Shown here in pieces: positions 22,280 to 22,957 of a stretch of DNA of 40,419 nucleotides. The DNA lies in IMG/VR virus record IMGVR_UViG_3300048080_000240, positions 1 to 40,419 of that record; one strand, written 5' to 3'. Position numbers and translations under genes: made by a program. This stretch comes from a virus. Below the pieces are notes generated by a model that was not told the origin of the DNA, ran no database searches, and was given only the letters and a program-made list of their open reading frames with translations. Numbering within the stretch: position 1 is the stretch's first letter; each line of letters starts with the position of its first letter.

Positions 22280-22333
22280 TCCGCTTTCCTCCCTCCACCT
22301 TGCCGCCCGGGCCTGCCCCGAGCAACCAATAGC

Positions 22334-22362
22334 AGCCTATCAAGACCGTTGATGCGAGTCAA
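22334..22362 (-). promoter_or_regulatory. Candidate leftward promoter TTGACT-N17-TAGGCT
   Basis: On the minus strand, TTGACT is at 22362..22357, followed by a 17-nt spacer and TAGGCT at 22339..22334, about 50 nt upstream of ATG 22279. Two further TTGAC(T/A) copies sit at 22367..22362 and 22378..22373. Confidence 0.4.
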
Positions 22363-22703
22363 GTCAAATCGCTGTCAACGAAATGTGAATTCGGCGTTAA
22401 CTCCTTCGCCTTGGCATGGCCCTTGCTAGAGACAGAGACTACACGGAAGTATCTGACGACAAACCACTGTGACCTAAATGCCACACTCCGCATATGAGTG
22501 GTCAGGAGTTGGCCGGCCGGGTTCTTACCACCTTCCGGCCTGGGAGTGGGGGGGCTTCGTGCGAGGGCTCGGCTCGACTCCTACGGTCGCCACCCTCCGG
22601 CTCTGGCGCCACTGGGGTAGGGCTACCCCCTGCCCCGACCCCCGGGGGAGCCCAAAGGAAGGCCGGTACCCCCTGGGAGCTCTTGGGACTCCAGCGACTT
22701 CTC

Positions 22704-22791
22704 GGGGGAGATTCGGGGGATTTTTCTTGGGGGTAGGTGTAGAAGGGGGTGGACGGAGGGGTGTGGGAGGGTGTAGGAGGGAGAGGGGGGG
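22704..22791 (+). other. Dense G-run array (nine G3-G7 runs in 88 nt), G-quadruplex/R-loop prone
   Basis: G runs at 22704-08, 22715-19, 22729-33, 22745-49, 22758-61, 22765-67, 22769-71, 22779-81 and 22785-91, all on the + strand in ORF-free DNA. Confidence 0.6.
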
Positions 22792-22793
22792 AG

Positions 22794-22833
22794 CTGGCCC
22801 TAGCGGGTAGGGCCAGAGGAGCGAGGACGCTCC
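22794..22833 (+). other. Two abutting perfect hairpins separated by one nucleotide
   Basis: CTGGCCCTA-gcggg-TAGGGCCAG (22794..22816, 9 bp), then a, then GGAGCG-agga-CGCTCC (22818..22833, 6 bp). Confidence 0.6.
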
Positions 22834-22957
22834 CCGCTCCACGGTGGTGCTCCGGAAGAAGATATTATCACTCCGGAACCCTCCCGCCGTCCCCAAGTGT
22901 GAGCCTCTGGAGAGGGGTTGTCAAGGGGAAAGGTGAAGCGGGAGAGAATGGTGTAAC

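Follow-up and report, generated by a model that had tools for sequence, protein, structure and literature searches.

The virus sequence of 40,419 nucleotides (nt) held as IMG/VR record IMGVR_UViG_3300048080_000240, analysed here over its whole length (the window), contains a sole long non-coding stretch, a gap of 678 base pairs (bp) at positions 22280–22957. The record is a whole JGI contig of 66% guanine plus cytosine (GC), with ends (1–127 and 40293–40419) that are identical over 127 bp, the overlap that an assembler leaves on a circular sequence, and the genome is thus complete at ~40.3 kb. It is podovirus-like: profile searches identified a portal, a major head protein, a terminase-like protein, internal virion proteins and RusA among its products, as well as DUF1376 ‘primosomal protein’-like, DUF2786/DUF7168, ArdC-N-like and HTH_3 proteins, and found no recognisable polymerase, helicase or primase in the phage. 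All genes face rightward save for one short leftward operon at ~18.8–22.28 kb, with the gap at the point of divergence. The gap may be the early control region of a lambdoid-style podophage, with back-to-back promoters of which the rightward is of sigma-54 type and precedes a long G-rich leader, a reading that is held here with about as much confidence as doubt.

The non-coding gap and its limits

Coding signal is absent from all six frames over 21894–23106, both in a plot of GC by codon position and in a codon-usage log-likelihood map trained on 26 confident genes, making this the longest such stretch in the genome. Pfam families gave no match for the ten open reading frames (ORFs) inside the gap, and tblastx of the gap against the corresponding region of a related phage, introduced below, gave no conserved peptide. 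Hidden coding is rejected on these three lines of evidence, and the gap is genuine non-coding DNA. An earlier, sequence-only reading had taken the interval to be free of genes and the ORFs within it to be non-coding shadows, and both statements are borne out. The runner-up, at 13015–13475, is without codon signal because a low-GC (about 52%) gene lies there (13100–13459), encoding a protein of 119 amino acids (aa) with a signal-peptide-like N-terminus; its ribosome-binding site, AAAGGAGGCACGAA, recurs verbatim ahead of the next gene at 13484, and it looks like an acquired ‘moron’ gene.

The right boundary needed testing, because the codon signal of the ORF at 22958–23416 is weak and the JGI start lies at residue 55. 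This first rightward gene (plus strand, 152 aa, GTG start) is G-rich and encodes an N-terminal zinc-ribbon module, NRFPGxCxxCG...W.V.H..C. A phmmer search of 1.84 billion representatives recovered 8 proteins that match residues 1–57 (E = 1e-7 to 4e-4), one of which (P0019) begins MGRNKRINKYPGVC, where the product of this gene begins MGRDRGINRFPGVC. Alignment of the homologues revealed an invariant N...C..C...G...H, followed in most sequences by a final C, which is the pattern of a zinc ribbon. The ORF is therefore a real gene with its start at GTG 22958, and the non-coding interval ends at 22957, the limit at which the sequence-only reading had placed it. The source annotation (JGI) starts the gene at 23120, giving a protein of 98 aa that is 54 residues short and misses the module; the present analysis corrects this gene call and identifies a zinc-ribbon module that lies outside any Pfam model and is found, in 1–3 copies, in proteins also bearing ERF recombinase or DUF6011. 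Within the same gene, at 23110–23137, there is a 9-nt tandem repeat (ATGTCCACG-like) in 3 copies, encoding MSTMSSMST.

The individual features that had been listed for the gap are all present. They include the palindrome CCCCCGGGGG (22639–22648), GGGGTAGGGCTACCCC (22614–22629), the repeated words CCTGGGAG (at 22539 and 22672) and TACCCCCTG (at 22624 and 22667), and an AT-rich island, GAAGATATTATCA (22858–22870). The description of the gap as G-rich holds for its 3′ part, but neither as a uniform trait nor as one ending at 22957: 22300–22480, where the putative promoters lie, is ~50% GC, G and C are balanced over 22480–22700, and the strong excess of G over C continues past 22957, through the zinc-ribbon gene, to about 23514.

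A single syntenic relative

Comparison is based on the sole syntenic relative, IMGVR_UViG_3300027573_000067, a 41.3-kb contig retrieved both by RusA alignment and by the portal protein, segments of which (L011, L013 and L015) were used. Its portal is 88% identical to that of the window and its RusA 70%. Synteny extends over L011 305–5903 (window 16450–21632) and L011 8040–11640 (window 23898–27766), and the ~2.1-kb middle between these parts has no blastn similarity. In L011 this middle is occupied by different small leftward genes, a non-coding gap of 550–650 bp and, beyond it, a gene whose product carries this zinc-ribbon module too (41% identity over 39 aa, E = 2e-8).

Further relatives were sought widely. 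None was found by blastn of phage GenBank, or in IMG/VR using single proteins and the hairpin described below, and two conserved-block patterns retrieved from IMG/VR only the same relative. In the JGI metagenomes the zinc-ribbon protein had no match and the hairpin pattern two chance matches, and in GTDB genomes the RusA alignment had no match and the promoter pattern 13 chance matches, with no prophage relative found. Among 5.8 billion proteins none is homologous to the neighbouring 140-aa protein, and DUF2786 and RusA have few relatives, of 60–70% identity and on short contigs. A 10,449-bp contig of one relative (P0003, JGI 3300043331) ends 13 nt upstream of the first leftward gene, where the gap would begin, which suggests that assemblies break here through low coverage of G-rich DNA or strain variation.

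Other comparators were set aside. The major head protein is only 26–29% identical to those of Myxococcus phages Mx8 and Mx9, and Mx8, when inspected, proved too distant. In the distant DUF2786 phages L001, L007, L008 and L030 the divergent regions are short or different. L001 has a 511-bp divergent intergenic region with four direct copies of ACTGGGTyKGGGkCAwTG upstream of its DUF2786 gene (9745–9990); these look like operators or iterons and are not homologous to the gap of the window.

Putative divergent promoters in a conserved block

The part of the gap nearest the leftward operon contains a block of ~107 bp, 22322–22428, that aligns without gaps to L011 6497–6603. Identity within the block is 60–75% (12–15 of 20 positions per window) as against 5–7 of 20 outside it, and similarity becomes random on both sides, on the right immediately after the TTGC of the putative -12 box described below. 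It is the DNA that is conserved here, as tblastx matches within the block are spread over several frames and are interrupted by stop codons. The block and the predicted promoter motifs within it are thus conserved between the two phages, which supports the part of the sequence-only reading that saw in the gap a control hub. Nothing in the analysis pointed to the packaging function that had also been suggested.

On the minus strand, the block contains a predicted sigma-70-type promoter, P_left, at 22334–22362, with a -35 element TTGACT (22362..22357), a 17-nt spacer and a -10 element TAGGCT (22339..22334). It is the only sigma-70-like candidate on either strand of 22250–23000 in a relaxed scan that returned 9 such sites genome-wide, and the same scan found no rightward sigma-70 candidate in 22250–23000. 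P_left lies where transcription of the leftward operon would begin about 48 nt upstream of the ATG at 22279, the first codon of a 44-aa ORF (22145–22279) that is preceded at 8 nt by the Shine-Dalgarno (SD) sequence GGAGGGAGG, and from its position 22280–22331 would form the 5′ untranslated leader of that operon on the minus strand. At the aligned position in L011 the -10 element is identical and the -35 element is 5/6 (ATGACA). The block also holds AAATGTGAAyTC and conserved GTCAA/TGTnAA direct repeats (22357–22393), the latter at -45 to -80 from the start predicted for the rightward element.

That element, TTGGCATGGCCCTTGCT at 22411–22427 on the plus strand, resembles a sigma-54 -24/-12 promoter and faces the rightward operon, with a predicted start near 22438. 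Its core at 22412–22427, TGGCATGGCCCTTGCT (TGGCAT-N5-TTGCT), has one mismatch to TGGCAC-N5-TTGCW and has its GG and GC 10 bp apart. At one mismatch or fewer, the consensus matches twice in the 80.8 kb of both strands where 0.58 matches are expected, which corresponds to an expectation of about 0.005 on this strand of the 678-bp interval. The aligned site of L011 (6587) is a perfect consensus, TGGCACAGCTCTTGCA (TGGCAC-N5-TTGCA), and two further copies lie on the same strand 26 and 82 nt downstream; three copies within 100 nt were not reached in any of 200 shuffles. L011 additionally has one weaker inverted copy. All five copies have the same TGGCA and TTGC but differ in the N5 spacer, which is the pattern of sigma-54 and not of a palindromic or dimeric operator, and in both phages the element points at the zinc-ribbon gene.

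An unlikely alternative treats these TGGCA-N6-TTGC elements as operators for a phage or host protein, the rightward operon then using an unrecognised promoter, for instance near 22858–22870. The four copies within 100 bp of the relative, one of them inverted, do resemble an operator array, neither phage was seen to encode an enhancer-binding protein (see below), and a cluster of dyads and the only AT-rich island of the gap lie 90–160 bp upstream of the gene. However, the motif lacks symmetry and agrees with the sigma-54 consensus wherever that consensus is strongly conserved, its spacer varying, it is present in a single copy in the window, there is no -35/-10 pair near the AT-rich island on either strand, and the dyad cluster is not conserved.

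The leader and the nearly C-free tract

If transcription begins as predicted, the rightward operon has a 5′ untranslated leader of ~520 nt (22438–22957, plus strand; G 0.38, C 0.26), within which no second rightward promoter candidate or convincing terminator was found before 22958. The equivalent leader of L011 (6612–7116; G 0.39, C 0.20) cannot be aligned with it downstream of the promoters, and what the two phages share is layout and composition. The sequence-only reading had named an absence of conservation or covariation as evidence against itself; such an absence is found in the primary sequence of the G-rich part, but not in its composition and layout.

One short block at 22676–22728 on the plus strand is common to both leaders. 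It reads GGAG-n2-CTTGGGACTCC-n6-TTCTCG, followed by a weak hairpin and ATTTTTCTT, and the 11-mer CTTGGGACTCC and TTCTCG are collinear with L011 6750–6800; the combined pattern, when scanned over IMG/VR, matches this relative only. A weak terminator-like hairpin with a T-run follows in each phage (22699–22728 and L011 6775–6797), the stems being poor.

Directly after this short block comes a nearly C-free tract of G, T and A on the plus strand (22699–22803), with nine runs of G3–G7 (22704–22791) and a degenerate 11–12-nt repeat, GGTGTAGGAGG (22736–22781; Tandem Repeats Finder). At its minimum it has 2 C per 75 nt, where the genome median is 24, and among all 75-nt windows on both strands of the genome only those of 22699–22803 and 22906–22980 have 5 C or fewer. 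G-quadruplexes (G4) were called as four runs of G3 or more with loops of 7 nt or less, or by a G4Hunter score of at least 1.5; the tract has a canonical four-run motif at 22758–22781 and G4Hunter scores of up to 2.24, and the strongest 100-nt G4Hunter window of the genome starts at 22698. L011 has a single nearly C-free tract as well (6811–6907), at the same relative position directly after the short block, where G4Hunter reaches 2.2 but the canonical motif is absent.

The tract lies in a zone of strong G>C skew on the plus strand (22639–23514) that covers the leader's 3′ half, the first gene and half of the next, and is the only place in the genome where the absolute GC skew exceeds 0.3 in 300-nt windows (peak 0.45). 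In L011 the skew is -0.3/-0.5 to the left of the promoters and +0.2/+0.48 to the right, so both early transcripts would be G-rich. A scan for R-loop-forming sequences returned 22704–24105, the longest such call in the genome. These features of composition are found nowhere else in the genome and are conserved between the two phages.

A transcription-primed (R-loop) replication origin would account for several of these properties and must be judged improbable, though not negligibly so. Here the divergent transcripts would hybridise over the G-rich tract, providing a primer or a loading site for a PriA-type primosome. In its favour are the R-loop-forming call starting at 22704, the top G4Hunter score of the G-run cluster, the uniqueness and conservation of the C-free tract, the change in sign of the GC skew exactly at the divergent promoters in both phages, and the small AT-rich island downstream (22858–22870). 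So, too, are the lack of an iteron-type origin elsewhere and a gene content without recognisable polymerase, helicase or primase yet with the DUF1376 ‘primosomal protein’-like gene, RusA and the ArdC-N-like protein. Set against these, no initiator gene is adjacent; cumulative GC skew, taken over the whole genome, does not reach a global extremum at the gap; the AT-rich island is only 13 bp long, with nothing aligned to it in the relative; and a lambdoid origin is usually within the initiator gene. The skew would also fit transcription-linked selection or mutation alone.

An iteron-type origin, taken as at least three direct repeats of a 15–22-bp unit next to an AT-rich stretch and an initiator gene, was rejected for the gap: repeats are at chance level, the sole repeat is the degenerate one of 11–12 nt, and the DUF1376 gene is 7.5 kb away. 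No iterons were found within the DUF1376 gene, nor an iteron-type origin elsewhere in the genome. The DUF1376 gene does contain, at 30838–30866, an AT-richer near-palindrome of low codon signal, GTATAAATCCGGTA-T-TACCGGATGGATAC, which is a possible alternative origin candidate. The idea of a sponge for CsrA or ribosomes was also tested, as GGA (22 vs 13.5) and SD-like words (14 vs 4.9) are enriched in the window, and was dropped since the relative is not consistent (20 vs 14.8 and 6 vs 5.6, respectively).

In both phages the convergent end of the leftward operon has a G/T-rich cluster of its own, situated between a shared terminator hairpin and the last of the late genes. These far-end clusters resemble the leader tract of their own phage in the same orientation (window 18679–18712 vs 22746–22777; L011 2199–2222 vs 6831–6852). 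The two clusters of the window share GGGTGTAGG (local-alignment p about 0.13) and those of L011 share TGGTGGAAT within a 22–24-nt match (p about 0.003). As the resemblance is seen in both phages, the leftward module is bracketed by similar G-rich tracts, which may mark module borders.

RNA structure and repeats

A long structured RNA, one of the possibilities originally raised for the gap, was not borne out, there being no Rfam match, ordinary fold z-scores, a leader that cannot be aligned and a sole strong fold that is not conserved. The Rfam scan that the sequence-only reading had proposed was run, and no family was matched at any threshold: the whole window gave nothing at the gathering threshold and only a spurious HOTTIP at E ≤ 10, and the region of the relative gave nothing. 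Sliding-window folds of the plus strand have z-scores of -2 to +1.9 over most of the gap, and 22436–22730, the putative first 295 nt of the transcript, folds no better than shuffles (z = +0.56). The gap belongs to no known RNA family or origin type.

The strong fold lies near the right end of the gap, in a cluster of three dyads at 22794–22885. It comprises a 9-bp perfect hairpin (22794–22816), which is the only perfect stem of at least 9 bp in the genome, a 6-bp hairpin (22818–22833), and a third dyad (22850–22878) in which CTCCGGAA...CTCCGGAA surrounds the AT-rich GATATTATC. Over 22785–22900 these fold into three neighbouring hairpins that a GGGG/CCCC helix closes, the z-score being -4.61 on the minus strand (0/200 shuffles) and -2.56 on the plus strand. 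Equally low values occur at several other places in a genome-wide scan, and at the same place in L011 there is no comparable fold (z -0.25 and -0.67). The two abutting perfect hairpins at 22794–22833 that had been noticed from the sequence are thus present, but the cluster that contains them is not conserved in the relative. The repeated words, which had been put forward as a signal, are at chance level: repeated 8-, 9- and 10-mers form 22, 7 and 1 groups, where 16.2 ± 4.5, 5.7 and 1.5 are expected. The number of 6–7-bp stems is likewise at chance level, and 12-mers of the gap have no meaningful recurrence elsewhere in the genome.

These results bear on the idea of a discrete non-coding RNA of ~290 nt, running from ~22438 to the U-run at 22720–22728 and regulating in cis or trans, perhaps in immunity or by an antisense-type action, with the zinc-ribbon gene served by its own promoter. 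Lambdoid phages keep immunity functions between P_left and the first rightward gene, which is the position concerned, and in both phages a terminator-like hairpin and T-run end a conserved block. Such an RNA is nevertheless decidedly improbable, given the lack of an Rfam match, the unremarkable fold of 22436–22730, the weakness and chance frequency of the terminator-like sites, and an interval from promoter to T-run that cannot be aligned and differs in length (about 290 nt, against 100–190 nt in the relative).

The gap as a candidate early control region

The favoured explanation places two early promoters back to back in the conserved block. P_left, of sigma-70 type, would drive the short leftward operon, with its small ORFs and the DUF2786/DUF7168, ArdC-N-like and helix-turn-helix proteins, and a sigma-54 (RpoN) -24/-12 promoter, P_right, would drive the rightward operon, from the zinc-ribbon protein through a coiled-coil protein and RusA on into the structural genes. 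Transcription from P_right would begin near 22438 and cross the ~520-nt untranslated leader to reach the gene at 22958. The sequence of this leader would be free to evolve, those properties kept being its length, the short block with its weak hairpin and U-run, and the almost C-free tract of ~100 nt. The tract may then constitute a co-transcriptional checkpoint on the rightward transcript, in which RNA polymerase is slowed or attenuated by G-rich RNA on its C-rich template, or by a G-quadruplex formed either in the RNA or in the non-template strand, and such slowing just past a weak terminator-like signal could set the amount of transcription that reaches the early genes. This regulatory role by pausing or attenuation is favoured for the tract with low confidence. 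We infer from sequence the use of sigma-54, the start at ~22438, the leader as a single transcript and a function of the G tract.

Several observations weigh against this explanation. Sigma-54 promoters require an AAA+ enhancer-binding protein, and neither GAFTGA nor a strict Walker A motif (G..G.GK[ST]) was found when all frames of the window and of the relative's segments L011, L013 and L015 were searched; with no such protein found in either phage a host activator must be assumed, and this would be an odd dependency for the main operon of a phage. The three tandem copies and one inverted copy in the relative could be sites for another protein, and the conservation rests on one pairwise comparison. 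Within the leader, the first 260 nt are not C-poor, the weak hairpin with its T-run is no more than the scanner's null model would yield by chance, and has a feeble consensus fold (-3.75 kcal/mol).

A more far-reaching version of the early control region, in which a host sigma-54 promoter stays silent until an enhancer-binding protein fires and the R-loop or G-quadruplex tract is its functional output, either priming replication or gating lytic entry, is given only a small probability. Least probable is that the part downstream of the promoters is functionless spacer, a decayed gene or mosaic junction made G-rich by transcription-associated mutation: the lack of conservation in primary sequence, the mosaicism of the flanking genes among relatives and the break in the contig of one relative at exactly this point speak for it, yet both phages keep a gap of 550–680 bp with a G-skewed leader and one C-free tract of ~100 nt at the same relative position, phage genomes rarely retain 500 bp of inert DNA, and A is about equal to T, so that there is no sign of cytosine deamination, from which T>A would be expected.

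Relation to known systems

The rightward element has the features of sigma-54 promoters, with GG and GC 10 bp apart in TGGCA(C/T)-N5-TTGC(A/T), a core that is kept, a spacer that varies, and an orientation that faces an operon. It differs in apparently heading the main operon of a phage, in the failure to find a phage enhancer-binding gene or a recognisable upstream activator site, and in the three tandem copies of the relative. Normally a phage early promoter is a strong site of sigma-70 type or serves a phage polymerase. A gene for a sigma-54-type regulator has been described in a phage (PMC3391216), and the literature search yielded no case of a -24/-12 promoter driving an early phage operon.

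The arrangement also recalls lambdoid P_L/P_R, in that putative early promoters lie back to back between a short leftward operon of recombination/anti-restriction type and a long rightward operon that includes RusA and the late genes, with a leader ahead of the first rightward gene. However, there is no repressor- or cro-like gene between or beside the promoters and no repeated operators, the rightward promoter does not appear to be of sigma-70 type, and the leader is G-rich and, as predicted, ~520 nt long. Unlike lambdoid nut sites, no boxA/boxB is common to both phages, a GCTCTT core being present in the window alone. With the put-type RNA antiterminators of HK022 the leader shares hairpins just downstream of early promoters, but the hairpin cluster here is not conserved in the relative and has no sequence or Rfam similarity to put.

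R-loop origins such as ColE1 RNA II, T4 oriF/oriG and mitochondrial conserved sequence block II (CSBII) likewise consist of a promoter followed by a non-template strand rich in G-runs, and we take the GGGGGGGAGC-type runs of the tract to resemble those of CSBII; what differs here is the lack of a defined unwinding element and of an RNase H or primer-processing context. Immunoglobulin switch regions have G-clusters on the non-template strand and strong GC skew downstream of a promoter, as do both phages, where G4Hunter exceeds 2. The present tract differs from them in belonging to a bacterial virus, in its length of only ~100 nt, and in the absence of the canonical four-run motif from the relative.

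Other features of the genome

Some further observations lie outside the gap. Immediately upstream of the portal gene, at 31797–31826, there is a sigma-70-like block, TTGAAC-18-TATATG, whose counterpart in the relative is TTGCAA-18-TATACG (L013 about 3975–4010); the block is conserved and may be a late promoter. Sigma-54-like matches on the minus strand by the portal gene, overlapping this block, were rejected as they are not aligned between the two phages. The G-rich first kilobase of the contig is a Gly/Ala-rich ORF resembling a tail fibre, not non-coding DNA. The only tRNA/tmRNA match in the genome, a tRNA-Leu(aag) called by ARAGORN at 36478–36557 on the minus strand, lies antisense within the major head gene and is probably a false positive of high-GC DNA.

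Implications for phage biology

What is new in this locus is the conserved sigma-54-type elements that appear to head a phage operon; it also has the conserved C-free G tract. The tract is a compact candidate for a functional R-loop or G-quadruplex element of a bacterial virus, of which, to our knowledge, very few have been documented. If the sigma-54 assignment is correct, a main operon driven from such a promoter would tie the development of the phage to an ATP-dependent activator of its host, and to the signal to which that activator responds, giving a different logic of a lysis or early switch.

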